Shown: positions 7,241-40,116, counted from the stretch's first letter. The stretch: DNA of 40,116 nucleotides from a bacterium (GCA_021842385.1 JAKCAE010000011.1:1-40116), one strand, 5' to 3'. A program made the numbers and translations. The notes: generated from the sequence alone by a model not told the origin.

Positions 7241-7316
7241 TGGTGGACGGGAGGAGAATCGAACTCCCAAAGAAACAGATGGTAAGCCATTTCCACACAC
7301 CAGTGTTAGCCCGCCC
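7241..7316 (-). tRNA. Non-canonical tRNA / tRNA-like RNA, 76 nt, Ala-type acceptor
   Basis: GGGCGGG/CCCGTCC acceptor with G3-U70, A73 and encoded CCA; T arm GGGAG-TTCGATT-CTCCT; D arm ACAC-TGGT-GTGT; no 7-nt anticodon loop. Confidence 0.75.
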
Positions 7317-25612: not shown

Positions 25613-26257
25613 ATGCTAAAACTAACAAAATATATAGCTACAGGAGCCATGGCACTAAGTATCCTCCCTTTTATGGCTTCAGCACATGGATTTGATGAGG
25701 ACAAAGGTGAAAGAACAGAAATGAAAGCCTACTTTGGCGAACATCTAAACCAAGGCCTACAATATGAACATAGGGCATTCACTGGTTTGGTGACAGCGCT
25801 AAGCACAACAGGCTTTACTCTAAAAGACGCTAATGGAACTGTCTACACAGTTGTTACAGCTGACGCAAGACTTGTAAGACCATTTACAGGAAGCATTGTT
25901 CTTTCTGATATAAAGGTCAATGACAAAGCTGTTGTCAAAGGGGAACTAAAAGATAACAACACCATAGAAGCAAAATCCGTTCAAATAATGCCGGCAAATA
26001 CTCACCCGGCACTAACTAACGGAACTATCACAGCGGTCAACGGCAATACCCTAACTCTTCAAAACACACATCTAGGAGTTGTCAGCAATGTAAATATAAA
26101 GACAGATGCTAACACTCAAGTTACAAAAGACGGACAAGCGGCAACATTAGCAGATGCCACTGTTGGAACGAGAGTTAGAATAAAGGGTCTTTGGGATGAA
26201 ACACTAAACATCCTAAATGCAATTAGAATCAATATCAGAACAGCGCTAAACAAATAA
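25613..26257 (+). CDS. Secreted DUF5666-repeat protein
   Basis: Signal peptide ending ASA; two repeats (GLVTAL..LSDIKVNDKAVVKG; GTITAVNGNTLTL..LADATVGTRVRIKG). Confidence 0.78.
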   Translation: MLKLTKYIATGAMALSILPFMASAHGFDEDKGERTEMKAYFGEHLNQGLQYEHRAFTGLVTALSTTGFTLKDANGTVYTVVTADARLVRPFTGSIVLSDIKVNDKAVVKGELKDNNTIEAKSVQIMPANTHPALTNGTITAVNGNTLTLQNTHLGVVSNVNIKTDANTQVTKDGQAATLADATVGTRVRIKGLWDETLNILNAIRINIRTALNK

Positions 26258-26299
26258 CTTAATAACGGATAAAATCAGTTGATATGCCAACTGAAACAC

Positions 26300-26324
26300 A
26301 AACCACCCCGCAAGGGGTGGTTTT
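26300..26324 (+). terminator. Intrinsic terminator
   Basis: aaaccacccc-gcaa-ggggtggtttt. Confidence 0.85.
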
Positions 26325-26339
26325 AATATTGTTCAATTC

Positions 26340-26445
26340 TTGACCTTAGTTAAAAACTAAGATATACTGGATATGTCTTTCGGTTTGTCATAAACTGAAA
26401 GGGTATTACATCCTAGAATCACCCTTCGCAAGGAGGGTGATTTTT
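26340..26445 (+). ncRNA. Candidate small-RNA unit (promoter + ~70-nt structured RNA) convergent on the NYN gene
   Basis: TTGACC(26340)-17-TATACT(26363-68); stem TCTTTCGGTTT/AAACTGAAAGG; terminator AATCACCCT..AGGGTGATTTTT ending in the NYN stop codon. Confidence 0.6.
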
Positions 26446-27013
26446 ATATCCCCTTCGACTTTCGATGTTGCAATGCCTTACCCCAAATATGTTCACCTAA
26501 ATCTAAAATTTCAAAATACCCATCAGCGCCAGTTCTTAATTCTTGCGAAATATTATTTTTCGAAGAAAAAATGTACACTTTTTTGCCTCGTCTGCGCAAA
26601 TATGAAACTAGAGCCAAGAAATCAGAATCACCAGTGAAAAATATGGCGATATCATAGTTTTGAAAAAAATGTACGGCATCTATCGTCATTTCAACATCCA
26701 TATTACCTTTTTCTTGAATCGATTCACCAAACTCATCAACTATACTTATCCTCTTAAGCTCTTTTTTTACAACTTCAAATTTTAAACCTTTTTTCAAAAA
26801 TGTAAAAAATTTATGTTTGGCATCTAAGCTGTATCTCCTGGTTCCCTCTGCTGGGTAGGCAGTATAATAGAATACCTTTACCTTATTTAACCTAAACTGT
26901 CTCTTTATATGTTCAAATAATTGCTGATAATCCAGGAACCTTCCTTTAGATTTCTGAGCTTGCCAAAGATTAGATGCATCAATGAAGACATAAATTGTTT
27001 TGTTGATATTCAT
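26444..27013 (-). CDS. NYN (LabA/DUF88, PIN-like) domain putative RNase
   Basis: FIDASNL, EKGNMDVEM, TGDSDF, SQELRTGAD motifs. Confidence 0.9.
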   Translation of the reverse strand: MNINKTIYVFIDASNLWQAQKSKGRFLDYQQLFEHIKRQFRLNKVKVFYYTAYPAEGTRRYSLDAKHKFFTFLKKGLKFEVVKKELKRISIVDEFGESIQEKGNMDVEMTIDAVHFFQNYDIAIFFTGDSDFLALVSYLRRRGKKVYIFSSKNNISQELRTGADGYFEILDLGEHIWGKALQHRKSKGI

Positions 27014-27107
27014 AGACTTAAAATAACAAGGAACACATGGAAAGAACCTAAAATATTATTAGTATATTTATAAATCCTCTTTAATACAAAAAACTTTTTT
27101 GGTCAAA

Positions 27108-27132
27108 CAAAAACCGCCAAGAGGCGGTTTTG
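27108..27132 (-). terminator. tmRNA terminator
   Basis: aaaaccgcc-aaga-ggcggtttt. Confidence 0.8.
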
Positions 27133-27143
27133 GAAACAATATC

Positions 27144-27528
27144 TGGTGGAGATGGCGGGAGTTAAACCCGCGTCCAGAAAAGGTTCCCTTAACAATTATT
27201 CACAAGCTTAGCGCGCTTTAAAGCCTTGTAGCAACAAACGCGCGAACTAACCACAAGGTTTAGTTTACAAAGATTCTTTCAGACGCGTAAACCAAACATC
27301 TGAATATATCCTGCAAATGAGGTGCGTGATCTTTTGTCGCAGGAAAACAAAAGGCGCACGTTCTTACCTAAAGATTAAGCAAGAACAAGTGAAGGAAACG
27401 CAAAAGCGTTCTTCACCTTAGCAATGAAATTGCCAATTATGATTGTGCTCAAGAATATTACGAGATTTTGAGCATACTCGGCTTGCATATTTTTAAAGGT
27501 CACTTCCCTGTCAAAATCCGGCATCCCC
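27144..27528 (-). ncRNA. ssrA: tmRNA (385 nt); tag (A)GNFIAKVKNAFAFPSLVLA*
   Basis: 5' GGGGATG..TTTTGACAG; 3' GCGGG-TTTAACT-CCCGC-CATCTCC-A-CCA with G3-U70; tag ORF 27434-27375 after ATAATT; smpB present in window. Confidence 0.93.
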
Positions 27529-27602
27529 TTAAATTACTTGCCCTTTTAGAGCAAAGACTAGTATGACACAAAAAAAGCCTTTTTTCAAGGCTTTAAATAG
27601 TG

Positions 27603-27767
27603 CTAAGCATGAAAGAAAATCCCAAAGGTTTTGTTAACCAGCATCGCTATATACATCCTAAAAAACCCCCAGATGCCGTGATGTTTGTAACCTTCAATTA
27701 AAGCCTCCCTGTAAAGCAGTCCCATTATGATGATAACAAGGAGAACAAAAAGAATTGCTGATGTCAT
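27603..27767 (-). CDS. 54-aa small membrane protein (not in ORF track)
   Basis: MTSAILFVLLVIIIMGLLYREALIEGYKHHGIWGFFRMYIAMLVNKTFGIFFHA*; TGcTATACT 6 nt before ATG; hairpin downstream. Confidence 0.55.
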   Translation of the reverse strand: MTSAILFVLLVIIIMGLLYREALIEGYKHHGIWGFFRMYIAMLVNKTFGIFFHA

Positions 27768-27785
27768 ATATATAGTATAGCACCT

Positions 27786-27814
27786 TTGACTTCTGACCTG
27801 AAAATAGATATAAT
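27786..27814 (+). promoter_or_regulatory. Sigma70 promoter of the infC operon
   Basis: TTGACT-17 bp-TATAAT. Confidence 0.8.
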
Positions 27815-27862
27815 CTATTTGATCTAAAATTAAATTAGGATCAAAAGGACTACTTTAATAGT

Positions 27863-28369
27863 TTGTTAAAAACTAGAACAAACAACCAAATACGCGTCCC
27901 AGAAGTCCGGGTTATTGATGAAGACGGGCAGCAGCTCGGAGTCATGAAAACCTCTGAGGCTTTAAGCCTGGCGCAAGAGCGAGAACTTGATTTGGTGGAA
28001 GTGTCTCCCCAAGCACTACCGCCCGTAGTTAAACTCATTAACTTTGACAAGTACCGCTATCACCAGAAAAAGCTAGAGCAACAGCAAAAAAAGAAAATCA
28101 AGAAGATTGACGTTAAAGGAGTTCGCCTTTCCCTGCGCATTTCAGAACATGATATGAGCATTAAGGCTAAAAAGGCTTCTGAATTTCTTGAAGAAGGACA
28201 CAAGGTAAAAGTAGATCTCTTAATGCGCGGCAGAGAACAAGCACACCCGGAAATGGGTTTTGAAGTCATCAAAAAGTTTCTAAACTTTGTGCCCAACTAT
28301 GCCACAGAAGTTCCGGCAAAACGCCAGGGACCATTTATCTCAATACTAATAACTAAAAAAACAGCTTAA
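27863..28369 (+). CDS. infC: Translation initiation factor IF-3 (TTG start)
   Basis: [44 protein letters not shown]. Confidence 0.96.
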
Positions 28370-28370
28370 C

Positions 28371-28565
28371 ATGCCTAAAATGAAGACCCACAAAGGAGCC
28401 TCCAAGCGTTTCAAGAAAACTGGCTCCGGAAAAATTGTTTACCGCAAAGCTGGACAAGATCACTTCAACTCCAGGGAAAGCGGAAAAACAACCAAGAACA
28501 AGAGACGCGACATGACTTTAACTAAGTCAAACCCAGGAATCGGAATTTTAATCACACATAAATAA
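28371..28565 (+). CDS. rpmI: 50S ribosomal protein L35
   Basis: [21 protein letters not shown]. Confidence 0.96.
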
Positions 28566-28566
28566 C

Positions 28567-28911
28567 ATGACAAGAATAAAACGCGGAGTAGCCGCATCTA
28601 AAAGAAGAAAGAACTTACTAAAAAGAGCAAAAGGTTTTGAAAACAGAAGAAGCACAAACTTTGTCGCAGCAAGAGAAGCGCTCCTGCATGCAGACAAATA
28701 TGCTTACAGAGACAGAAGAAACAAGAAGCGCGACATGCGCGCACTCTGGCTCATTAGATTAAACGCTGCTTTAAGAGACAATGGCACAACCTACAGTAAA
28801 TTCGCCGGAGCCTTAAAGAAAGCAAAGATTAACCTCAACAGAAAGACTCTTTCTGAACTGGCAATCAAAAGCCCGGAAGCATTTGAAGCATTAGTAAAAC
28901 AGGTTAAATAA
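28567..28911 (+). CDS. rplT: 50S ribosomal protein L20
   Basis: MTRIKRG..AKGF..AYRDRRNKKRDMRALWLIRLNAA. Confidence 0.97.
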   Translation: MTRIKRGVAASKRRKNLLKRAKGFENRRSTNFVAAREALLHADKYAYRDRRNKKRDMRALWLIRLNAALRDNGTTYSKFAGALKKAKINLNRKTLSELAIKSPEAFEALVKQVK

Positions 28912-28918
28912 TAAGAAT

Positions 28919-28946
28919 AAAACACCCGCCGTTTGGCGGGTGTTTT
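28919..28946. terminator. Bidirectional terminator
   Basis: aaaacacccgcc-gttt-ggcgggtgtttt. Confidence 0.88.
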
Positions 28947-28967
28947 CTTTGGCCTTAAAACTAAAAG

Positions 28968-29546
28968 TTATTTAGTTGGGGCTGGGGTCTGAGTTGCTGG
29001 AGGAGTTGTTGCTGGTGTTTGTGCTGCTGGAGTTTGAGTTCCTGCATTTGCATTAGCACCGTTCTTCTTGTATTCCTCAATTGCTTGAGCAACACGTCCG
29101 TCTGCTTTCAATTCTTCAAAGAACAAAATTTGATCTCTGTTGATTTGCATAACGTCATCAGGACCGTGCAACTCATTACCTAATTTAACCAAGGACAACT
29201 GTGGCTGTTGGTTTTGGGTTTGGGTTGCTGGCTGACCAGATTGCAACTGTTCTTGCTGGTTAACCTGGAGGTAATAAATATCTTTCAAGGTTACATATTT
29301 ATCTCTCATATCAGAAACTTTACCAAAGTAAACCTGACCATTGGTTAGGAATACTGCCTGATAACCGGAAAGCTTTGTCTGGGACTTTGAACCCATACCA
29401 AGCTTGTCTCTAAACAAGAAACCTAAAACTGCTAAAACTACAACTACCACAATTACCAATACAACCCAAGGAGCGCGTGAGCCCCCCTGTGCTGGCATTG
29501 GTTGTGCCGAACCCATTTGAGGTTGGCCGTTCATCATTTGATTCAT
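28968..29546 (-). CDS. Conserved CPR-type membrane-anchored hypothetical protein
   Basis: TM followed by YQAVFLTNGQVYFGK..DIYYLQ..LVKLGNELHGP..INRDQILFFE. Confidence 0.8.
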   Translation of the reverse strand: MNQMMNGQPQMGSAQPMPAQGGSRAPWVVLVIVVVVVLAVLGFLFRDKLGMGSKSQTKLSGYQAVFLTNGQVYFGKVSDMRDKYVTLKDIYYLQVNQQEQLQSGQPATQTQNQQPQLSLVKLGNELHGPDDVMQINRDQILFFEELKADGRVAQAIEEYKKNGANANAGTQTPAAQTPATTPPATQTPAPTK

Positions 29547-29600
29547 ATGTTTATATATAACTATTAATTAATACCTAAAACTTTAAACCTCCGATATTTT

Positions 29601-30233
29601 TTAACAACGCAAGATCTCAAAAAGAACACTATTAACAACAAGCACAGAATCCTTTGGTTTAAAACCAAGAGATTCAGAAGAGTAGGATGTTTCTAAAACA
29701 TCACCTATTGCCTGAGAAAATTCGTAACCAAAACCATTTGAAGAAACGATGGCAACTTCTTGTTTAGTATTTGAACTTACTAAACCAAACCGTGCTATCT
29801 TTGGCGTTTCTTTAAAAACCAAAATATGTCCGACAGATGAGTTTGTAAGATTATTTACTGCCAGAGTTTCCTGATATGAAAAAGAGCCGACATTCAAAGA
29901 AAGAGAAAAACAATTAAGCTCCTGATTCAAACTAAAAGTATTCTGCAACTTTGGAATATATATTGCCCGTCCTGCAACTTCCGTATTACAGCTATCCAAT
30001 GCAGTTGCCTTAGCAACAAAACGTTTTTCAACAAAAACACCGCTACTATCAATTGCCGTAACATACTGGATATTCTTTGTCTCTAAAACAAAGCTATCTA
30101 CTGCAACAGGAGTAATTGCGGCGTAGGAAAAAGCCTCTACTCTAAGACCATAACTAAGTATGGCCAAAAGCGCAAAAATACTGTAAAAAACCGTGAATAA
30201 TTTGAACTTTTGTATGGATTTCATTAGGCTCAC
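29601..30233 (-). CDS. Hypothetical exported protein
   Basis: 210 aa ORF; signal-like N-terminus; TATAAT 6 nt before GTG. Confidence 0.6.
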   Translation of the reverse strand: MSLMKSIQKFKLFTVFYSIFALLAILSYGLRVEAFSYAAITPVAVDSFVLETKNIQYVTAIDSSGVFVEKRFVAKATALDSCNTEVAGRAIYIPKLQNTFSLNQELNCFSLSLNVGSFSYQETLAVNNLTNSSVGHILVFKETPKIARFGLVSSNTKQEVAIVSSNGFGYEFSQAIGDVLETSYSSESLGFKPKDSVLVVNSVLFEILRC

Positions 30234-30387
30234 TTAACGATTATATTATACCACGTTTAAGGTCTTTTTCCAAAAGAAACAAGACTCCCCTGTGGACAAG
30301 TTTAGAACATAAATTGTTAAGAAAAAAGTTAATCTGAAATTAATGTTGATCTGTTAAACTTTGTAAAACCATTAAAACTCAACAAAG

Positions 30388-30789
30388 ATGTTTTCTGATT
30401 ATACAACAGCTTTCAAAAACTGGTGCAGGTTAAAAATCAAGCTTTGGAACAGGCCCAAAACGACGGTTTTCAAGCAAGGAGATATTTGGTGGTGTAGCTT
30501 AGGAATGAATTTGGGTGAAGAAATCTTTGGCAAGGGTGAAAAACTTACCCGTCCGGTTTTAATCTTTAGAAAATTCACATCTAATTCTTTTCTAGGCTTA
30601 CCGTTAACTACCCAAGAAAAACAAGGTAGTTGGTATGTAGAAACAGAACTTAAAGGAGTCAAAAGATGGGCTATGCTCAACCAAGCTCGTATATTAGACA
30701 AAAAGCGCCTGACTAGCCGAGTCGGGGCGCTTGATAACGGACAATTAAATAGGGTTAAGAGACACTTCTTAGAGCTCTATTCTTCCTAA
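30388..30789 (+). CDS. MazF/PemK-family endoribonuclease toxin, solitary
   Basis: KQGDIWWCSLGMNLGEEIFGKG..RPVLIF..GLPLTT..NQARILDKKRL. Confidence 0.88.
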   Translation: MFSDYTTAFKNWCRLKIKLWNRPKTTVFKQGDIWWCSLGMNLGEEIFGKGEKLTRPVLIFRKFTSNSFLGLPLTTQEKQGSWYVETELKGVKRWAMLNQARILDKKRLTSRVGALDNGQLNRVKRHFLELYSS

Positions 30790-30878
30790 AAATCGTCACC
30801 CCGCCTTTTAAGGGGCGGGGCTCAGTGGGAAATCCCAAATTGTGTATATACAATATCAAAAGATTAAAAGTTTGTCAA
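30788..30878 (-). ncRNA. Candidate small-RNA unit (promoter + ~55-nt structured RNA) convergent on the MazF/PemK gene
   Basis: Minus strand TTGACA(30878-73)-17-TATTGT(30855-50), then ACAATTTGGGATTTCCCACTGAG-CCCCGCC-CCTTAAAA-GGCGGGG-TGACGATTTTT ending at the toxin stop codon. Confidence 0.6.
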
Positions 30879-30913
30879 AAATGAGCGAACTCATACAGAG
30901 TTCGTCCCATTGT

Positions 30914-33900
30914 CTACGGTGTTGTTGTGCCTGTATCCCCTGTTGCAACTGTTCCTGATGTGTCAGCTGCTGCTGTTGGCGTATCGCTTACTGTAGGAAC
31001 AGCACTAGGTGCAGGTTCTGTCACAGTTATGGTTTGATCGGTGGTTGCTGCTGTATCAGTTGAAACGGTTGAGCTTGTGTCTGTTGAGCTTGCTGTCGTA
31101 TCAGTTGGTGTTGTTGTTGCGTCAACAGGTGTTGTTGCAGTGTCAGAGCCTGTGCTTTGAGTTGTTGTTGTATCTGGGGAAACAGAAGAGCCCGAAGAAG
31201 CAGCGGGAGCGCTTGTTGTGTTCGTTGGTTCTGCATTACCACTAACATAACTGTTATTAATCATCAACAATACTCTTACTTTTCCTGATCCAGAAACCAA
31301 GCCATCCAAAGCTATACCAATTACAGGCATTCCGCTTTCATTTGGCTTTAATTTTCTTGCATGCCCTGAGACATCAGAGATTGTTAACTTGTCACCAGGC
31401 AATATTGAATTTTGAGTCAAACCATCCCCTGCTTCCACATTAATCATTCCAAATGTTCCAGAAGTAACAACATTCATAAACTCACCCTTAGGAATTACTG
31501 TGTTGCTTGAGGCTTTGGAAACAGGAGCTCCAGGGATGTCAAAATCTGACATGTTTCTGTCAGCAACACCGACAACGATTGTTGCTTTGATAACTTGGGA
31601 GTCGCCACTTGGAGATGTTACTTCTGCTAAACCGTTTGTTTCAGAGGCTAAAGATGTGTCTGCTTTAGAAACACTTAATATTGGGTTATTACCGACGATT
31701 GTTTCACTTTCAACACCTCTTAAGACCACAACATCACCTTGAGCAATATCTACATCACCAATATTTCTGGCAAGAATTGCGGTTGAACCAAGAACTTGTC
31801 CTAAAGCAACTAAGTCTTTCTTAACAATTAAGCTTGCGCCAAGAACTGCTCCGCCCTTTGCCCTGATGACAAATTGCTCAATGCCGTTGTTTCTAATGAC
31901 AAAGATGTTCTTTCCGGAATCCAACGCAATGCTTGTGTTGATACTGATAGCGCCGTTTGAGGCAATCATGAAGCGATTTACTTTTCCAGACTGCACTTGC
32001 AAGATGTCAGCATTAACTGCGGCTGTTGTGTTTGCAGTATCTGTAGCATTTACTGTTGTATTCACAGCTTGTCTGATGACAAAGGTTAGGGATGAGCTGG
32101 AAGAAGCAATTGATTCTGCAACATCTGCAGAACCTTGGGTGGTTGCAGAATCACCAGATGCAATCTGTTGAGCAGTTAAGGCTGCAATATCGTCATTTCC
32201 CAAAACAAAGGTGTTGTTAATTTGCTCGTATGCTGTTCTTAAGGAAACAAGGACCTTGCCTGTATGGATTGTTAAACCATTAACAACTTGCGAATTTTCT
32301 GAAGCATTAAAACCTGCCAAAGCCTGACCGACAACTCTTCCTGAAACTGTCGCGCGCATCGCAAATCCAGGGATTGATGAAGATGCTGTTAAGAAATCGC
32401 CTCTGGAAACAGGACCATTTTCATCAGTAATGTTTACCAAAGTTGTACCACTGTATGCCACGCTCTTTATGGCATCAACCGAATTAACAACCTCACCGTC
32501 TCTTGGCATACCTAAGACAAAGCCGCCTTTTTCAACTATCACACCAAAGATTGAAGAATCATATGGCTTAGTTGCTTTTGAAATATTTGCACCGATTATG
32601 GCAACAACATCTCCTGAAGAAGCATCGTCTGAGATGACAAATTCCTGAGTATATGTGGAAGCGCCGGTTGTAATGAACTGTCCACCAATTGTTATGGATC
32701 CTGAAACAAACATGTTTCCTTCAGTTGTAACTCTTAACTGGGTTGTAGAAACACCGCCAACCTCTGCCACTATCCTGAAGATGTCCGCAGCAACTCCTTC
32801 GGCAAAGTCAGCGGTTGATTGAATTGTTAAGCCTACCACTGCATCTGTGCTGTCGTCTGAAATATGAACTCTGGTTTCAGGAGTGCTTGTGCCAAAACCA
32901 ACATTGCCGTTTGTAACAATCAAACCATAATGCTTAACACCAGTTGCACCCATGTCATTAAAGATTGGGTTAATTAAGACTGCGGTTAAGGATGTTGCTG
33001 TTTGGGTTGTTCCGTCTGCTAAGGTTTTAACAGCATTCAATCCGCTTGCAATCTCAAAGGCAGCGCTTGGTGCTTCTGTGCCAAAACCAACATTGCCGTT
33101 TTCATCAAAGACAAATTGTGCTGGAGCTGTGTAGTACTGAGGGCGGATCAAAACACGAATTGTTGTAACAACAACTTTTGGATCAGCAGCAACAGGGTTA
33201 CCTAAAGCATCTAAAGGCGCATCTTTTGCCGCAATTGCCTGAGCTTGTTCTAAGCTGTAACCTTCCATAGCTACACCAACAACATATCCGGAAGAGGTTG
33301 CTTTTTTACCAACACCAGCAACAGAAGAAACTGTGATGTAATCACCAGGCTTAATCTCTCCGCCGTCAAGATTTACTTTTACCGACAACTGTCCAATCAA
33401 ACCAACAAGGGTGTTGTATGACGCAAAATGTGCATCGCAATCACTATCATCAACTTTACAAATTGGACCGTTTCCAACGAAGCCGGCGTTGTTAGAAACA
33501 ACACCAACTATCGGAGCAACAGAGCTGGTGGCTTTCTTAACAGTTTTTCCGGAAGAAACATCAAAGGCAACGATTTCTGAATCCTCTAGCTTGTTATTTG
33601 CGTCAGCATCTAAGAACCATTCTGCCAAGTCAGCACCAGTTGTGGTGTAAGCAACAGCAGAAGCACCACCTTGAATCTTACCTGCAACTGTTCCATCTGC
33701 TGTAGCAAAACCAATGAAGTAGTTATTAGCGTTTCTGCTACCATTTGCAATACCCAAGCTAATTAACAAACCATCTGCAGTTGTGCTTGTGTTTGTGTTA
33801 TTTATCCTTGCAACATACGTTGAAGCTTGAGAATCCTGAACAATGAGCTTGTAGCTAGAAGTAGCACTGGTTCCGAAAGCAATATTTCCGTTGTTTGCGA

Positions 33901-36900
33901 TATTTAATGATTTGTTCAAAGTCGTATCAGTTGCATAAGTTCCAACTATGCTCTGTCCGGTAGAATTATTATAGTAAAAATTCAGGAAAGATGTTGAAGA
34001 CAAAGCAGTGCTTGATATATATACGCCTAAAGTAACAGAAAAATCTATTTTGGTTCCAAAGCTTAAAACAGTGCTTGAAGATATTGTTCCTGTAACTGAA
34101 TATCCATTAAAGGTTGATGCGTCAGCGTAAGAAATGGCAAAGTTAGTAGCATCTAACATGGCAACTGCTGTGTGTATTGCATTATCTGTAGTAAAGTAAT
34201 ACTTAGACCCGAATGTGATTGTGTTTCCTGAATATGTCGCAGCAGCAGCAGCACCGTAAGATGAATTTCCTGTATCCTGGAATGAAACAATGAATCCTGT
34301 TGTTGATATGGCATCCATAGAAATCCAGGCAGTGTTCAATGAATTAAATGTAACAGCAGTTCCAAAGGTGATTGTAGTACCTGCGGTAACATCACCAATT
34401 ATAGATCTGCCGGTAGTTGCAGAAAGATAGCTTACCACAAATTTTGTTGAGGAAAGTGCTTTAACAACATTGTAGCTTGCTGGAGTTGCGGAAGCAGTAT
34501 AGTTTACTGCTGTGCCGTATGATGAAATTGTTGTGCCGGAAACAACACCGACTCTTGCCTGACCTCTGTTGTTTACACTGTCATTGTAGACTATGACAAA
34601 GTGCGTTGAATCTAAAGCCGCAACAGAAACATAATAGTTGTTAGTTGCATTTCCTGGAGTAACCGCAGCGCCACAACTAAATGTATTCCCTGAAATGGAA
34701 CAGACTTTTGCATAAATGACGGCGCCAGCTGAAGAAACCCAACCAACTACTATGTGTGTGCTATCAAGCACAGAAACACTGACCTGACCATGCAGAACCG
34801 TACCAGATGTTTCTATAGCTATTGATCCTGGCGTAGCACCCCATGAAATTGTATTACCCACGTACGTTCCAATGTTTACAGTAACAGCGTCAGCAGGACC
34901 TCCGTTATCGTAAACATACGCAGCAACAACATGGCTTGCATCCAACTTTACTAAAGACGTTGCTTGAACTGCTGCAGCAATAAACTGAGTTTGGGTGCCA
35001 AAGGAAGATGTGTATGTTGTGGCACTTGCCGGAATTGTTCCAATTATACTCTGCCCGGTAGATGTTGAGCGTCCGTATATATTCAAAAATCTAGTAGAAG
35101 AAAGCGCTGCATTTGATATATTTAGATTTTGGACTGATGCTTCTATGGCAACTTTTGTTCCAAAACTTAAAACAGTACTTGAAGATATTGTTCCTGTAAC
35201 TGAATATCCATAGCTGCTGGTCCCAGAAAATGTAATAGCAATATTTGTAGAATCTAACATGGAAACAGCTGTGTATGTCACAGCATCTGTTGTGAAGTAA
35301 TACTTAGACCCAAAGGTGATTGTGTTTCCTGAATATGTCGCAGCAATTGCAGCACCATTTTGTCCGTTTCCTGCGTCTTGATAGGTAACAATGAATCCTG
35401 TAGTAGATATTGTATCCATAGAAATCCAAGGAGTATTTGCTGAATTAAATGTAACAGCTGTCCCAAAGGTAATTGTTGTACCAGCTGTAACATCACCGAT
35501 TATTGATTTTCCTGTAGAAGAAGCTGTATGACTGACCACGAATTTTGTTGAAGAAAGCGCTTTAACAACATTGTAATTTGCTGTTGTTGAAGTTGCTGTG
35601 TAGTTGACTGCTGTGCCGTAGGATGAGATTGTTGTGCCGGAAACAACACCGACTCTTGCCTGACCTCTGTTGTTTACACTGTCATTGTAGACTATGACAA
35701 AGTGCGTTGAATCTAAAGCCGCAACTGAAATGGAATAGCTTGTACCAACAGTTGCAGGACTGTTAGAAGCGCCACAACTAAACGTTGTTCCAGAAATTGA
35801 ACACACTCTAGCGCTTATGGCACCGCCAACTGTTGTACTCCAAGCAACAACAATGTGCGTGCTATCTAATGCAGAAACACTAATATATCCTTGAGAAATA
35901 GCTCCTGTTGAATCATTAACCAAGTTTGACCCTGTAGCCCAAGCAATGGAATCATTAACATATGTTCCAACTTGCACATAAACCGAGGCATTTACACCAT
36001 CGTCGTAAACATATGCAGCAACAACATGAGTTGAATCCAATTTGACAAGAGATGTTGCTGCGGCATTGCCGCCCAAAAACTGTGTTTGTGTTCCAAAAGT
36101 AATAGGATTTCCCGGTCCATTTACGGCAAAGAGTGCGCTTGTGCTTACAGTTGTCTGAGAAATCTGAGCATTGCCTAAAACATCCAAGGCCTGAGTTGGG
36201 TTTGTCCCAACACCAAGCCAACCTGCTGAGCTAACTGTTGTAAGTGCTGTCCCTGCAGAATTCTGAACCTCAAAGAGATTTGCGCTCTGACTTGGAGCAG
36301 CTTGTACTACCAAAGGCTTATCATTTGCATCAATGGAGGAGATGAACTCACCACCGTTTGAAACTAAACCTCTATTTGCAGCAACTGTTGAAGCGGTTGT
36401 TCTGGCATAAACTTCAGGCACTGTATCTTGAACTAACTGCGCGCCCCAAGCAATGATTGTTCCGGTTGAACCATTTCCAGGCAAGATAACGGCTTTAATA
36501 TTTGAAGGCGTTCCTGTAAAGTTTTGAGTCACTGAAAATCTTTGCCAGGTTGTTGTTGCGGTATATGTTGTGGCTGTTCCTGTTGTTGGGGTTGCACCTG
36601 TTGAATCAATTCTTAATCCTGTTGTTACAGTTCCAGAGGTTGTTTTTGCCCAGAAGGAGAAAGTATAGTTGCCATTTGTTGTTGTGGTGTATGTTTGAAT
36701 GAGTGAGCTTGCGCCGGTTCCTGCAAGAGTATCACCAGTTGTAGTTCCATCAGGAGCTGCCGTTGAATTAGCAGTAACTGTAATACCAGTTGCAGCCCAT
36801 GCTGCGTTATCCAACTGCTCTGAGTATGTTAACAAGTTCTGGAATCTTCCTAACCCACCAAACCCGTTATTCAAGTTACCAGTGAACTCCTGATCACCAG

Positions 36901-39900
36901 CTGCTGTTACTCTCAAAGTATTTGCACCAGTAGAATCTTGAATCTGTAATGAATCAGCTGTTGCAGATGCAATCTGCTTTATCTTCGCACCAACGTTTCC
37001 AACAGCAGTTTGGTTTACATCTAATTGTGCGGTTGGAGTGCTATCTGTACCAATACTTACTTTTCTTCCTGACAAAATCATGGTGTTTTGAACGCCAGTA
37101 CCATCTCCAGTGACTTGTCTAAAATAGATATCTGCATTTTCTGCTGTACTTGTGTGCGATGTATTCTTAACACCAATCTGTGCTGCGCTGTACAAAGCAG
37201 CCACTGAGTTATTTGTCTGGAAAGACATCAACATTCCGTTATTTGCTGTAGTATCTAAGTTTCTAACAGAAAGCTGTGGGAAACCACTAAATGGAGATGT
37301 ACTTGTATTGTCATACCTTGTAATCAAAGCATAATCAGCAGCAGTTTGAGTAACGTCTAATTTGGCTGCAGGTGTTACCGTCCCAATACCGACATACCCA
37401 TTTCCATCTAACACCATTTGTGCTGTGGCAGAATTATTAGCAAAACCAAGTAGTCTTGTGGCTGCGCTAGAACCAGTTATATATCCGATATACGCGTTTG
37501 CTGTAACTCCATCTGTTAATCTCAAGGCTGACCATGTGGTTGTTCCACCAGTAGTTCCTAAAGCCAAAGTATTTGCGGTGTTGATTGCAGCTCCTCCTGC
37601 TGTCTCTATTTCTAATTTTCCAAGTGTTGGACCGGACACGCCGATACCAACGTTGCCACTACCGGCATTGATAATAGTGTTGTTGCCCTGGTTATTTAGC
37701 TGCAAAGGCTTGGAAGCCCAAGATTGAATATATGCATAAGTAGCATCTGAACCGACGGTTAAATTGGTTGTGCCCTGGTTAGCCAAAGCAATACCATAAG
37801 TTCCAGGTGTTCCAACCGTAACATTTGCCGATTGATTAGATGTCAACAAATTAGCTGGACTTACAGTGCCTACTCCCAAATTCCCGCCATTGAAATATGA
37901 AGAGCCGCCGCCGTTAATAACAGCGTTGGTGCCAAAGGTTCCAGTGCCAGCTGTTTTGAAATTACCCGTGTTTGAAGAAAGTTCCGCTACAATCGAAGGA
38001 GTTGTTGATGATATAGTTCCAGACTCCCAAGTCCAACCATAACCTGCAACGTTTTCAATGAAGCTTCGCAAGCCCCAGCTTGTAACATATGTACCAGTAG
38101 GAGCTGTAATATTTCCGGTTGGTCCTAAACTTGTACCGGCAGCAGGTCCCATATATTCAGCCCAAGCATTATAGGTCCCGATGTTATACCAGCTTATACC
38201 AGAAGCTGCATTAGCGCTTCTCGCAATCGCAATCTTAGGAAGAGTCGCTATGCCTGTTCCAGAGTTCATAGCAAGACTTCCAGTAATATTTGTTGTGTCT
38301 GTTGCGTAATTTCTATCAATCCACCTGGATGGTGTGCCAGCGTTCCATATCAAAAGACCTGCTTGTGGTGAACTCCCATTCCACGTTTCCATAGAAACAC
38401 CAAAACCAGTCGTGAATTGCGATCTGAAACCATAGTTCGTAGTTATTGTTGCAGGATCAGCCGTAGTAGCGCCAGCACTTTCGGGAGACCTAAATGATCC
38501 TGTATTCGCAGCACCATTTCTTACTCCTGAACTTGAATAATATATAGGAGTAGTTACAGAGGTGCCAATGACGGGTGCTGCGGAGAATGAAGGAGCACCT
38601 GCATTAGCAACGAGCACTGTGTTAGCAGCACCTTGAGCTGTGGCTTGTATTGCTCCTGTGCCATTACCATAGAGAACTCCGTTAGAAGTAAGGGTGGTTG
38701 CTCCAGTACCGCCATACGGCACTGTTACTGTAGAACCATTCCAAGTGCCTGTAGTAATTACACCAGTGTTTGCAGTAACAATTAATCCATTGTATGAAGC
38801 AGCTCCTGTGATTGCACCGGCAGCTGAGATGTTGATGCTTCCTGATGTTAAAATATTATCCCAACCAGTTCCAACATTAATTGCATTTTCGGTTCCTGCT
38901 CCACCAGTAATCGCGTCAAGCTTGATTCCATTTTCTGTAACACCAGAAGCAGCGGTGCTTCCTACTAATCTTAGACCACTCCATGTTCCACCTGTAGTAC
39001 CGCCTGCTGTTAAATCTACTCTCATGGCAGAAGCTTCCACAGCAGCTGCGCCTCCTACATATGTAACAGCAAGTGCATTTACTCCGGCAGTAGTGACAGC
39101 TTGTCCGGTATTTGTAATTTGTACCATATCAGTAGTAGGAACGGCTGAAGCTTGGAACTTAGCAATACCGGCTCCCACTAGATTAAAGGTTGCTCCAGCT
39201 GTTCCTGAATTAAAGACCAACCCTGTTGCGCCTGTGGTGTTACCAATTGTAATTGTTTTGGCATTAGCCCCTGTTCCTATATTGAGCGCATTAGTTGTGG
39301 CTGAATCAACCGAGAGTGTTCCCGTTGAAGTAAGAATCGGTGTTGTAACCGAAGTTGAGAATCCGCCAGTACCCACAACCTGCAAATTATACGAGGTAGG
39401 GCTTGTTGTACCGATACCAACGTTGCTGCCTAAAAATGTCATTATGTCTGTCATTGTGCCTACATTATCTGTCAGACCCATCGTGGCGATTGCCGTATTG
39501 CCAATTTGTCTGCCTCCTTTCACGAAAAAGCCTCGATCATTGTTGTGGTTAACACGTAACACACCGTAAGTATTATCAGAGTCCGCGCCTCCCTCAAAAC
39601 GCGCGACCTCGACATTGCCGGTACCACCGCTTACCTTTACATGAAACTGTGTGGCAGCGGCCGTGTCATCGATTGAATATGGCGTCGTTGTCCCAATCCC
39701 AACATTTCCATTGCCAAGTACTGAGAGTCTGGTTCCTCCAACAAGGGTGTAGGCTGCTCCTGAGTTTGTTCCTGTCCAAGCATCTGTTGTTAGGGAGGTG
39801 TTTGATGCAATTGCAGAGATTGTTCTTGTTTCTGCATTTACTGTGATGGTATCACCTACTTTGAAGGTGTTAAGGAACTGGGTACCTACACCTGTTACTG

Positions 39901-40116
39901 TGGTTAGTGTTGCTGTTGTTGATACTGTTCCTGCTCCTGTTGTTCCTTGGGCTACCTGGAGATTTGCTGTTGGAGCTGTGGTACCTATACCGACGTTGCC
40001 AGAATTTAAGATAACCATTCTTTTTGCCGGAACATAATTAACTCCGACGGTAAGACCTGTGTCATTCCAAAATTCTGTAGAACCATCTTGACGAAAATTT
40101 ATTCCGGAAGCTGCTG
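30914..40116 (-). CDS. Giant surface fibre/adhesin-like protein (5' end outside window, >3060 aa)
   Basis: Frame remains open from 40018 to the window end; many GNVGIGTTxP repeats, tandem beta-propeller-like domains, GADLAEWF chaperone-like motif, Thr/Pro-rich tail. Confidence 0.85.
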   Translation of the reverse strand, partial: AASGINFRQDGSTEFWNDTGLTVGVNYVPAKRMVILNSGNVGIGTTAPTANLQVAQGTTGAGTVSTTATLTTVTGVGTQFLNTFKVGDTITVNAETRTISAIASNTSLTTDAWTGTNSGAAYTLVGGTRLSVLGNGNVGIGTTTPYSIDDTAAATQFHVKVSGGTGNVEVARFEGGADSDNTYGVLRVNHNNDRGFFVKGGRQIGNTAIATMGLTDNVGTMTDIMTFLGSNVGIGTTSPTSYNLQVVGTGGFSTSVTTPILTSTGTLSVDSATTNALNIGTGANAKTITIGNTTGATGLVFNSGTAGATFNLVGAGIAKFQASAVPTTDMVQITNTGQAVTTAGVNALAVTYVGGAAAVEASAMRVDLTAGGTTGGTWSGLRLVGSTAASGVTENGIKLDAITGGAGTENAINVGTGWDNILTSGSINISAAGAITGAASYNGLIVTANTGVITTGTWNGSTVTVPYGGTGATTLTSNGVLYGNGTGAIQATAQGAANTVLVANAGAPSFSAAPVIGTSVTTPIYYSSSGVRNGAANTGSFRSPESAGATTADPATITTNYGFRSQFTTGFGVSMETWNGSSPQAGLLIWNAGTPSRWIDRNYATDTTNITGSLAMNSGTGIATLPKIAIARSANAASGISWYNIGTYNAWAEYMGPAAGTSLGPTGNITAPTGTYVTSWGLRSFIENVAGYGWTWESGTISSTTPSIVAELSSNTGNFKTAGTGTFGTNAVINGGGSSYFNGGNLGVGTVSPANLLTSNQSANVTVGTPGTYGIALANQGTTNLTVGSDATYAYIQSWASKPLQLNNQGNNTIINAGSGNVGIGVSGPTLGKLEIETAGGAAINTANTLALGTTGGTTTWSALRLTDGVTANAYIGYITGSSAATRLLGFANNSATAQMVLDGNGYVGIGTVTPAAKLDVTQTAADYALITRYDNTSTSPFSGFPQLSVRNLDTTANNGMLMSFQTNNSVAALYSAAQIGVKNTSHTSTAENADIYFRQVTGDGTGVQNTMILSGRKVSIGTDSTPTAQLDVNQTAVGNVGAKIKQIASATADSLQIQDSTGANTLRVTAAGDQEFTGNLNNGFGGLGRFQNLLTYSEQLDNAAWAATGITVTANSTAAPDGTTTGDTLAGTGASSLIQTYTTTTNGNYTFSFWAKTTSGTVTTGLRIDSTGATPTTGTATTYTATTTWQRFSVTQNFTGTPSNIKAVILPGNGSTGTIIAWGAQLVQDTVPEVYARTTASTVAANRGLVSNGGEFISSIDANDKPLVVQAAPSQSANLFEVQNSAGTALTTVSSAGWLGVGTNPTQALDVLGNAQISQTTVSTSALFAVNGPGNPITFGTQTQFLGGNAAATSLVKLDSTHVVAAYVYDDGVNASVYVQVGTYVNDSIAWATGSNLVNDSTGAISQGYISVSALDSTHIVVAWSTTVGGAISARVCSISGTTFSCGASNSPATVGTSYSISVAALDSTHFVIVYNDSVNNRGQARVGVVSGTTISSYGTAVNYTATSTTANYNVVKALSSTKFVVSHTASSTGKSIIGDVTAGTTITFGTAVTFNSANTPWISMDTISTTGFIVTYQDAGNGQNGAAIAATYSGNTITFGSKYYFTTDAVTYTAVSMLDSTNIAITFSGTSSYGYSVTGTISSSTVLSFGTKVAIEASVQNLNISNAALSSTRFLNIYGRSTSTGQSIIGTIPASATTYTSSFGTQTQFIAAAVQATSLVKLDASHVVAAYVYDNGGPADAVTVNIGTYVGNTISWGATPGSIAIETSGTVLHGQVSVSVLDSTHIVVGWVSSAGAVIYAKVCSISGNTFSCGAAVTPGNATNNYYVSVAALDSTHFVIVYNDSVNNRGQARVGVVSGTTISSYGTAVNYTASATPASYNVVKALSSTKFVVSYLSATTGRSIIGDVTAGTTITFGTAVTFNSLNTAWISMDAISTTGFIVSFQDTGNSSYGAAAAATYSGNTITFGSKYYFTTDNAIHTAVAMLDATNFAISYADASTFNGYSVTGTISSSTVLSFGTKIDFSVTLGVYISSTALSSTSFLNFYYNNSTGQSIVGTYATDTTLNKSLNIANNGNIAFGTSATSSYKLIVQDSQASTYVARINNTNTSTTADGLLISLGIANGSRNANNYFIGFATADGTVAGKIQGGASAVAYTTTGADLAEWFLDADANNKLEDSEIVAFDVSSGKTVKKATSSVAPIVGVVSNNAGFVGNGPICKVDDSDCDAHFASYNTLVGLIGQLSVKVNLDGGEIKPGDYITVSSVAGVGKKATSSGYVVGVAMEGYSLEQAQAIAAKDAPLDALGNPVAADPKVVVTTIRVLIRPQYYTAPAQFVFDENGNVGFGTEAPSAAFEIASGLNAVKTLADGTTQTATSLTAVLINPIFNDMGATGVKHYGLIVTNGNVGFGTSTPETRVHISDDSTDAVVGLTIQSTADFAEGVAADIFRIVAEVGGVSTTQLRVTTEGNMFVSGSITIGGQFITTGASTYTQEFVISDDASSGDVVAIIGANISKATKPYDSSIFGVIVEKGGFVLGMPRDGEVVNSVDAIKSVAYSGTTLVNITDENGPVSRGDFLTASSSIPGFAMRATVSGRVVGQALAGFNASENSQVVNGLTIHTGKVLVSLRTAYEQINNTFVLGNDDIAALTAQQIASGDSATTQGSADVAESIASSSSSLTFVIRQAVNTTVNATDTANTTAAVNADILQVQSGKVNRFMIASNGAISINTSIALDSGKNIFVIRNNGIEQFVIRAKGGAVLGASLIVKKDLVALGQVLGSTAILARNIGDVDIAQGDVVVLRGVESETIVGNNPILSVSKADTSLASETNGLAEVTSPSGDSQVIKATIVVGVADRNMSDFDIPGAPVSKASSNTVIPKGEFMNVVTSGTFGMINVEAGDGLTQNSILPGDKLTISDVSGHARKLKPNESGMPVIGIALDGLVSGSGKVRVLLMINNSYVSGNAEPTNTTSAPAASSGSSVSPDTTTTQSTGSDTATTPVDATTTPTDTTASSTDTSSTVSTDTAATTDQTITVTEPAPSAVPTVSDTPTAAADTSGTVATGDTGTTTP
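33930..36100 (-). repeat. Tandem intragenic duplication (~365 codons per unit)
   Basis: 98-nt identical blocks at 34527-34624 and 35628-35725 (offset 1101); both units begin FGTQTQF. Confidence 0.9.

Follow-up and report, generated by a model that had tools for sequence, protein, structure and literature searches.

Small RNA genes convergent with NYN and PemK/MazF nuclease genes in a CPR bacterium: conserved partners and candidate antidotes

The DNA analysed here (the window, JAKCAE010000011.1, 40,116 nucleotides (nt)) comes from a bacterium of the candidate phyla radiation (CPR). It represents contig C3 of the host genome G000, which comprises 565 kb in 45 contigs with 39% G+C and an estimated completeness of 90%. 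Two predicted ribonuclease (RNase) genes in the window, one encoding an NYN-domain (PIN-like) protein and one a member of the PemK/MazF family, are each met tail to tail by a small gene on the opposite strand. Each of these small genes is predicted to encode a structured small RNA (sRNA1 and sRNA2, respectively) with its own promoter and with a terminator that abuts the stop codon of the nuclease gene (Table 1). In agreement with a preliminary description of this DNA, the order of stop codon, terminator hairpin, small hairpin and reverse-strand -10, 17-bp spacer and -35 is present at both loci, and the two RNAs share no sequence. The partnership between nuclease gene and RNA is real and general, and it appears to be previously undescribed.

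The NYN protein matches PF01936 with 88.9 bits (cut-off 24.2, E 5.9e-25), a match that recurs in the scan of the host genome, and its nearest solved structure is 2qip. It also matches an NYN model (E 1.7e-12) among the candidate-defence models of PADLOC. The U-tract of the convergent sRNA1 overlaps the complement of the NYN TAA stop codon (26444-26446). Folding of the 73-nt RNA yields -29.6 kcal/mol (z -5.35), and none of 200 shuffles is equally good. At the second locus, the MazF-like protein matches PF02452 with 51.2 bits (cut-off 23.1, E 1.6e-13) and the PHROG family 'MazF-like growth inhibitor' with an E of 4.7e-17. Its nearest solved chains are those of Bacillus subtilis EndoA/YdcE (E 4.8e-4), and its relatives carry the NCBI label 'type II toxin-antitoxin system PemK/MazF family toxin'. 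The convergent sRNA2 carries the conserved flank CCCAC-GA / UGAC and folds with a z of -2.9 (2/200 shuffles equally good). At both loci the hairpins are followed by U-tracts on the strand antisense to the nuclease gene only, with no U-tract after them on the mRNA strand. The start positions of both RNAs were derived from promoter geometry.

No gene for a protein antitoxin accompanies the MazF gene. The upstream gap (30234-30387) contains no open reading frame (ORF) of at least 30 aa on the same strand, the homologues share no small upstream ORF in 11 loci, and the upstream neighbours differ in all 11. In addition, no MazE/PemI-like gene was found upstream or downstream of the MazF gene, either in the window or in the 11 homologue loci.

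Table 1 Coordinates of the nuclease genes, the predicted small RNAs and other features. Positions refer to the window unless a contig is named.
Feature	Position	Strand	Details
NYN-domain (PIN-like) predicted RNase gene	26444-27013	-	189 aa; PF01936, residues 7-168
sRNA1 promoter (predicted)	26340-26368	+	-35 TTGACC 26340-26345, 17-nt spacer, -10 TATACT 26363-26368; 10/12 consensus matches
sRNA1 (predicted, start inferred)	26374-26446	+	~72 nt; two hairpins with linker between
sRNA1 hairpin 1	26377-26401	+	11 bp
sRNA1 conserved single-stranded linker	from 26402	+	
sRNA1 terminator hairpin	26415-26444	+	13 bp, G+C-rich, then U-tract
PemK/MazF-family predicted endoribonuclease gene	30388-30789	+	133 aa; PF02452; stop codon 30787-30789
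sRNA2 promoter (predicted)	30850-30878	-	-35 TTGACA 30878-30873, 17-nt spacer, TG-extended -10 TATTGT 30855-30850
sRNA2 (predicted, start inferred)	30788-30843	-	~55 nt; two hairpins + U-tract
sRNA2 small hairpin (hairpin 1)	30837-30826	-	4 bp
sRNA2 hairpin 2	30821-30798	-	8 bp
sRNA2 U-tract	30792-30788	-	overlaps MazF stop codon
Third module, DUF3800 gene	G000:C13:21738-22316 (module to 22450; L254 739-1451)		PF12686, E 1.4e-7; convergent RNA ~100 nt
Fourth module, 136-aa gene	G000:C42:370-780 (module 282-780; L255)		no family match; convergent 55-nt hairpin RNA
tmRNA gene	27144-27528	-	133.8 bits; tag peptide GNFIAKVKNAFAFPSLVLA; between both loci, directly upstream of NYN module
Three ORFs between the loci	27863-28911		read as infC-rpmI-rplT from translations, no family search

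Comparison with genomes of the same genus reveals a shared pattern at the two loci. In genome G003 the NYN orthologue is 92% identical, and the homology forms a block of 733 bp (window 26339-27071) extending from 1 nt before the -35 element to 58 nt upstream of the NYN start, with both flanks unrelated between the two genomes. Within this block the sRNA1 body is identical at 69 of 70 positions, with a 2-nt insertion in the U-tract, compared with 489/570 in the NYN coding sequence (CDS). The -35 and -10 hexamers are both retained in full (6/6), the spacer at 12 of 17 positions. The sole substitution in the RNA body lies in the terminator stem, where U·G becomes C-G. In genome G004, which carries an 85% identical MazF orthologue, 53/54 positions of the sRNA2 body and 349/402 of the MazF CDS are identical; the promoter is preserved at 6/6 positions of the -10, 14/17 of the spacer and 6/6 of the -35, and the next 35 nt at only 7/35. 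RNA bodies that are more conserved than the coding sequences, together with retained hexamers and drifting spacers, are the hallmark of a promoter that works and of a transcript with a function.

The association extends far beyond the genus. A collection of species-representative genomes contains 213 relatives of the NYN protein, the best 80 of which (65-92% identical) were examined, and sRNA1 lies convergent behind the NYN stop codon in all 80. These loci span Jorgensen-, Adler-, Moran-, Falkow-, Azam-, Komeili- and Magasanikbacteria and other CPR lineages; they also include the cultured Bacteroidota Niastella vici DJ57 and one bin labelled Pacearchaeota. Since related genomes are not independent, the locus counts given here overstate the number of independent events. 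In an alignment of 81 sequences (A3), the two-hairpin structure has 97.7% of its cells paired and shows compensatory change in 12 of 19 pairs. None of 500 shuffles reaches any of five measures of this structure, and slid controls are 41-62% paired. RNAalifold independently returns the same two hairpins, with 24 pairs, 13 of them showing compensatory change. At pair 17-35, 39 sequences have G·U, 27 have G-C and 14 have A-U, and U·G is also frequent at three pairs of the terminator. Because such G·U pairs would be A·C mismatches on the mRNA strand, it is the strand antisense to NYN that is functional.

The sRNA1 promoter is equally persistent across the 80 loci. The first, second and sixth positions of the -10 element are retained in 80/80 (T), 79/80 (A) and 78/80 (T) loci, respectively, the TTG of the -35 in 76-79 of 80, and 69/80 loci score at least 9/12. 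The distance from the end of the -10 to a conserved GUCU is 6 nt in 73/80. The stretch between the hairpins, GGGUAUUACAUCC.AG, is nearly invariant. At 70 loci the distance from this linker to the stop codon is 42-50 nt (44 in the window), which places the 3' end of sRNA1 within a 9-nt range; among the remaining loci the ORF enters the RNA gene in four and the gap is longer in six.

The association also holds when the RNA is taken as the starting point. An exact-motif scan with the linker and stem of sRNA1 yielded 92 loci, 84 of which have a convergent NYN match 10-230 nt beyond the motif. For three of the other eight, the DNA on that side extends over at most 300 nt. Opposite L162 is a 209-aa ORF with a HEIGH motif, presumably ImmA/IrrE-like, opposite L182 an unknown 229-aa ORF, and L169, L199 and L235 face nothing comparable. 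A covariance model of sRNA1 (R1) finds strong copies in 3 of the 146 genomes of the order. Four weak R1 matches (E 1e-4 to 9e-4) turned out to be ordinary terminators behind pth, rplT and other genes, with the rest of the motif absent, and are not counted.

Two minor observations concern sRNA1-like sequences and the sRNA1 promoter. A weak R1 match at L290 (G117:C7:2851-2951), behind an ORF read from its translation, with no family search, as a peptidyl-tRNA hydrolase gene, keeps a linker-like GGGGUAUUACAUAC before a CCCUCC/GGAGGG terminator and may be a diverged orphan sRNA1. In addition, a DnaA-box-like 9-mer (TGTGGATAA or its complement, at most one mismatch) lies near the sRNA1 promoter in 26 of the 80 loci (L050-L129), where about 2% would be expected from its frequency in G000. 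It falls within ~85 nt around and upstream of the -35, is absent from the copy in the window and is also seen before several sRNA2 promoters; it might be bound by a regulator or belong to CPR promoters in general.

For sRNA2 the RNA is present at 13 of 14 loci with MazF relatives (44-85% identity), and TTGACA-type promoters occupy the same place at the other sRNA2 loci. At L131 a repeat-flanked insertion separates the MazF gene from sRNA2. At L142 (44% identity) the sRNA2 body is absent and a convergent TTGACA-17-TATCAT promoter ends 5 nt from the stop codon. A scan that started from the RNA motif yielded 18 loci, 14 of them with a convergent MazF-like match; in L150 and L160, which have no MazF match, the contig ends on that side, and L158 has nothing nearby there. 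An alignment of 23 sequences (A4) has 97.2% of its cells paired; one row, L140, is out of register by three columns along the 3' half of the stem. Compensatory change occurs in 4/7 pairs of hairpin 2 (4/11 overall), the 4-bp hairpin 1 being invariant. A covariance model (R2) recovers 19 sRNA2 matches in 15 of the 146 genomes of the order. Thirteen of these have a MazF-like gene, or what remains of one, as a neighbour (the window's own, that of G004 and 11 found by phmmer), the proteins being as little as ~33% identical. Distant copies change the GGG/CCC of hairpin 1 to GGC/GCC, a covariation absent from A4 for that stem. Moreover, L308 and L311 are two sRNA2 copies arranged in tandem ahead of a single MazF gene, and both have a promoter of their own.

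The surroundings of some sRNA2 loci also contain traces of rearrangement. A short element with inverted repeats starting CCCCGTTAGAA, which looks like a miniature transposable element, lies between the MazF stop codon and sRNA2, or adjoining, at L131, L150 and L142. Upstream of the MazF gene in G004 (L023; compare window 30200-30390), an extra stretch of ~250 nt contains a repeat of the upstream gene's 5' end and the 3' part of a tRNA-like sequence with the T-arm GGTTCGATTCC, which suggests a past insertion or rearrangement beside the module.

The same layout recurs on other genes with other RNAs. Divergent NYN paralogues of the same order (25-37% identical) have a convergent TTGACA-type promoter and a hairpin RNA reaching to the stop codon at 7 (L004-L008, L019, L021) of the 17 loci that yielded a match. 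Their RNAs are quite different in sequence, L005 and L006 sharing one type and L007 and L021 another. Likewise, five of eight divergent MazF homologues (L024, L025, L026, L028, L030) have such a promoter and a hairpin RNA of different sequence in that position. In the host genome itself, which has one PemK gene and no PF01850 PIN gene, two further modules were found. The RNA of the DUF3800 module is structured, has a TTGACA-18-TATATT promoter and ends in a terminator abutting the stop codon; its core is kept behind homologues down to ~40% identity, and more distant ones have a different RNA that shares a GAAUAGGC-like element. The RNA of the fourth module, behind a gene for a 136-aa protein, is preceded by a TTGACA-17-TATTAT promoter. 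As read by eye, these two RNAs are conserved behind homologues in 21 and 10 listed loci of the order, respectively, and the 136-aa family has two or three tandem units in L280, L282, L284 and L285. The tandem units in relatives, both of this family and of sRNA2, are likewise convergent. The 136-aa protein has 386 homologues, all labelled hypothetical, and its predicted model has a predicted local distance difference test (pLDDT) score of 94.9. Foldseek returned nothing for this model at E<=0.001. The top rows of VIA-align are mostly RelE, YoeB, BrnT, ParE, MqsR and YafQ (Z 5.1-3.4, residues 46-136); with Z below the secure level of the tool, this modelled likeness to a RelE/ParE fold is a weak lead and not proof. 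These divergent paralogues with their own RNAs and the two additional modules, together with the RNA-first searches and the near-constant presence of sRNA1 and sRNA2, strongly support the earlier proposal that a cognate convergent sRNA for each RNase is a general arrangement and not a coincidence.

The modules are patchy and horizontally mobile, as indicated by the differing flanks in G003, the patchy occurrence (3/146 and 15/146 genomes) and a serine recombinase gene adjoining the Niastella module. In Niastella vici DJ57 (contig14, L114 2007-4346), the NYN gene (65% identical) and sRNA1 stand beside a gene for a 547-aa large serine recombinase, which is evidence of horizontal transfer. The tmRNA (transfer-messenger RNA) gene adjoins the NYN module in the window, and tmRNA genes are classic integration sites of mobile elements; the position fits the module being an insertion at that spot. 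The exact motifs of sRNA1 and sRNA2 had no match in a collection of viral contigs. The way in which the modules decay is one-sided. Degraded NYN genes stand beside intact sRNA1 at L192 (N-terminally truncated), L196 and L218 (both frameshifted) and L216 (internal deletion), and sRNA2 is found beside MazF fragments at L141 (residues 1-73) and L143 (residues 4-65) and beside broken genes at L294 and L300. Some intact RNAs stand alone with no nuclease gene, and no intact close homologue of either nuclease was seen without its RNA among the loci examined. Such decay, in which the RNA outlives the nuclease, matches the prediction for a pair of antidote and poison.

Several known systems share part of this arrangement. 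The type II systems MazEF and PemIK have a toxin of the same Pfam family; unlike them, the locus described here has no adjacent MazE/PemI gene, and its conserved neighbour is an RNA gene. The pemK RNA motif of Firmicutes is also linked to pemK genes and is regarded as cis-regulatory, but it lies in the 5' untranslated region (UTR) on the same strand, whereas the RNA here is convergent and downstream. Type I pairs such as txpA/RatA and bsrG/SR4 resemble the present loci in being tail to tail, in having a separate promoter for the RNA and in the complementarity of that RNA to the 3' part of the toxin transcript. Their toxins, however, are small (<~60 aa) hydrophobic peptides, in contrast to the nucleases of 133-192 aa found here (189 and 133 aa in the window), and the RNAs here lie almost wholly outside the CDS, with unpaired sequence conserved across phylum-level distances. 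Type III systems (ToxIN, CptIN, TenpIN) are alike in that an endoribonuclease toxin is checked by a structured RNA, in their mobility and in the tandem RNA units of some relatives here; in addition, ToxN shares the Kid/MazF fold. They differ in that their tandem RNA repeats lie upstream on the same strand, with a terminator between the repeats and the toxin gene, whereas here the RNA is usually single, downstream and convergent, with its own promoter. Moreover, the proteins here belong to the PemK, NYN and DUF3800 families and not to the ToxN family. A type III RNA binds and inhibits its toxin and is processed by it; for the present modules, binding of this kind is a proposal. In type III systems the antitoxin consists of multiple RNA repeats, which form a cyclic complex with the endoribonuclease toxin (excerpt of PMC8860590).

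The DUF3800-I to -XI motifs are 11 unrelated RNAs associated in either orientation with DUF3800 genes, several of them ending in terminators, for which the excerpted text gives no function (Weinberg et al. 2017, PMC5737381). They are similar to the RNAs described here in being structured and family-specific, in the 3' terminators of several of them and in the use of different RNAs for different subgroups, and contig C13 of the host genome itself contains a DUF3800 module. The main text of that paper has no occurrence of NYN or pemK, and its supplements may list related motifs. DUF3800 proteins are RNase H2-like and act as the effector of type VII retrons, according to an excerpt of PMC7736814. 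The RNAs described here differ from the DUF3800 motifs in that they match no Rfam family. At the gathering score Rfam 15 finds only the tmRNA in the window, and at E<=10 nothing in 26200-31000 overlaps the sRNA1 body or sRNA2 and no pemK motif appears. At E<=1 the DUF3800 and 136-aa loci give nothing relevant, and no DUF3800 motif. Thus two widespread, strongly conserved structured RNA families, one of them found 92 times by exact motif, are absent from Rfam. A literature search, with subscription journals and supplements outside its scope, found no account of NYN or MazF genes that have a convergent sRNA as partner.

We propose that each locus is a compact two-gene module consisting of a solitary, mobile, toxin-type nuclease and a family-specific small RNA. 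This RNA would be made from its own strong promoter on the opposite strand, would end in the terminator abutting the nuclease stop codon and, produced in excess, would serve as the antidote of the nuclease. We give even chances to the proposition that the sRNAs are RNA antitoxins. The route that we favour is a direct one, in which the structured RNA would bind the nuclease protein much as type III antitoxins do. Type I-like pairing with nuclease mRNA that has read through at its 3' end, unavoidable if both strands are transcribed, may add a second layer. The sequences establish how the two loci are built, that promoter, structure and sequence are conserved, which strand is functional, that gene and RNA go together and that a protein antitoxin gene is absent, whereas transcription, toxicity, neutralisation and the mode of binding are inferred. 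The invariant unpaired linker of sRNA1 and the flanks of sRNA2 are needless for cis-antisense control and point to recognition by a protein or in trans. Similarly, tandem copies and maintained orphans, which antisense control leaves unexplained, point to recognition of the RNA by the protein. The partners themselves have toxin-type folds and no protein antitoxin, namely MazF, NYN, DUF3800 and the 136-aa protein, with its weak RelE/ParE fold match.

A number of observations weigh against the antidote reading. The 12 sequencing runs that hold this stretch are all DNA, so that transcription, transcript ends and strand are predicted. NYN (PF01936) proteins have not been established as toxins, and an excerpt of PMC5499597 lists their function as unknown. 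The layout (single copy, convergent, downstream) is unlike that of every characterised type of RNA antitoxin. The second NYN gene of the host genome, encoding a 223-aa paralogue, has no such RNA. Orphans make up six of the 19 R2 matches, and at L154 sRNA2 faces an ORF that was read as a macro-domain gene from sequence motifs, with no family search; since orphan copies are fairly common and one stands beside such a gene, sRNA2 may have a role independent of MazF. In addition, the U-tract is missing from the sRNA2 copies L132, L138 and L140, which indicates that the 3' hairpin is not always a terminator. The preliminary description had further proposed to test reverse-strand promoters downstream of stop codons for enrichment, and at the motif level in this one genome no significant enrichment was seen. 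The scan of G000 covered 594 ORF-based genes and 151 strong promoter-like sites (at least 5/6 in both hexamers). Ten of these sites are convergent at 40-130 nt from a stop codon, compared with ~7.2 expected under uniform placement, which is not significant, and three of the ten are real modules (NYN, DUF3800 and 136-aa). The sRNA2 promoter of the MazF locus fell below the strict threshold of the scan. Similarly, the 9-kb region around the loci contains 21 promoter-like sites compared with 19.4 expected; its terminator-like sites number 19 compared with 8.4 expected. A motif-level test is too coarse here. The informative measure is conservation, which, unlike the promoter motifs, raises the finding above chance.

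Pure cis-antisense control of the type I kind would dispense with any contact between RNA and protein: the sRNA would base-pair with the nuclease mRNA at its 3' end, or convergent transcription would make RNA polymerases collide. The outcome would be duplex cleavage or lower expression, and an mRNA with no terminator of its own before the sRNA gene must read through. The sRNAs are encoded on the strand opposite the sequence that directly follows the stop codon, so that overlap with the mRNA requires read-through, and this is expected because on the mRNA strand no U-tract stands behind either hairpin. The layout itself makes the two genes perfectly complementary, the 3' end of sRNA1 is held within a 9-nt window of the stop codon in 70/80 loci, and at L142, where the convergent promoter stands right at the stop codon, the RNA would enter the CDS. 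Convergent, 3'-overlapping RNA antitoxins in Bacillus subtilis (txpA/RatA, bsrG/SR4) also speak for such a mechanism. Pairing that arises automatically, however, leaves unexplained why unpaired stretches remain invariant across proteins that have diverged to 60-70% identity (33% for MazF), and neither tandem copies nor orphan copies with intact promoters are accounted for. Moreover, if the terminator works, the overlap between RNA and CDS is just 0-3 nt. The modules also span many CPR classes and one Bacteroidota genome, whereas an excerpt of PMC5367252 reports that type I systems are distributed more narrowly and takes up a proposal that antisense regulation goes with lower mobility than direct binding. 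On balance we consider cis-antisense control as the sole mechanism to be unlikely. The sRNA1 linker also showed no pairing with the 5' UTR and start region of its own NYN gene, the mean z being +0.2, with 2 of 78 loci below -2.

The sRNA could instead be a working partner of the nuclease (cofactor, guide, scaffold or substrate) in a ribonucleoprotein for RNA processing or anti-phage defence, comparable to the DUF3800 motifs. Such a role would agree with the strong one-to-one association, in which each protein subfamily has its own RNA, and with the invariance of the single-stranded stretches. The linker of sRNA1 contains UACAU and sRNA2 has UACAA near its start, and these could be substrate or decoy sites; we take them to resemble MazF-type recognition sites. 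The match of the NYN protein to candidate-defence models of PADLOC also fits, as does the linkage of 11 unrelated RNA motifs, with no function given, to DUF3800 genes in the excerpted text of Weinberg et al. 2017 (PMC5737381). Against a partner role, a cofactor would be expected to vanish together with its enzyme, yet intact RNAs outlast broken or missing nucleases, and intact nuclease genes were not seen without the RNA. We judge the partner role improbable as a whole, and a cofactor or guide function, especially for NYN, nevertheless to be a serious rival. A search of G000 for guide or decoy targets with the core 14-mers (at most two mismatches) gave 3 and 1 extra matches, compared with ~3.6 expected, which is about chance, so that no guide target is evident.

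It is very improbable that the element acts as DNA or on the mRNA strand (stabilising the 3' UTR, terminating transcription in both directions or serving as the recombination site or end of a mobile cassette) with an incidental promoter: the homology with G003 does begin 1 nt before the -35, as at the edge of a mobile unit, and gene-end hairpins are common terminators, in keeping with the excess of terminator-like sites given above, but 80 loci preserve the hexamers and the interval from them to the RNA start, with variable spacers, both the G·U pairs and the U-tracts favour the antisense strand, conservation of the linker sequence is not a property of terminators, and the remainder of the motif is absent from the weak R1 matches that are no more than terminators.

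Returning to the RNA antidote, a broader claim can be put forward more tentatively, with less than even confidence. The modules may form an unrecognised class of systems resembling toxin-antitoxin (TA) pairs, in CPR bacteria and occasional others, in which a tail-to-tail sRNA directly inhibits the nuclease. This class would have arisen independently on at least four folds (NYN, MazF, DUF3800 and RelE-like), with a separate RNA for each subfamily. It would give a function to the DUF3800 RNA motifs, which have lacked one since 2017, and would explain the 'antitoxin-less' toxins of streamlined genomes. If the RNAs are antidotes, they represent a new layout of RNA-based toxin control across several nuclease folds. 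Solitary MazF, NYN, DUF3800 and possibly RelE-like genes of CPR bacteria may thus have RNA partners that are invisible to annotation pipelines. The presence of the NYN module in the cultured Niastella vici DJ57 makes the idea directly testable, and natural RNA inhibitors of sequence-specific RNases would be possible laboratory tools.

The remaining features of the window lie between and outside the two loci. Besides the tmRNA gene and the three ORFs of Table 1, two further genes, neither with a Pfam match, are located between the loci. A tRNA-like element at window 7245-7316 (- strand) has a good acceptor stem, a T-arm and a CCA end, together with an aberrant anticodon arm. It is missed by ARAGORN and reaches 31.1 bits with the tRNA-Sec model, below the threshold of 47 (E 2e-4). 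Beyond the sRNA2 promoter lies an ORF of 3034 aa (window 30914-40018, - strand), which has its own terminator (30904-30886), a terminator that is missing in G004. The encoded protein is rich in Thr, Ser, Gly and Ala, contains internal repeats and is probably a giant surface protein.

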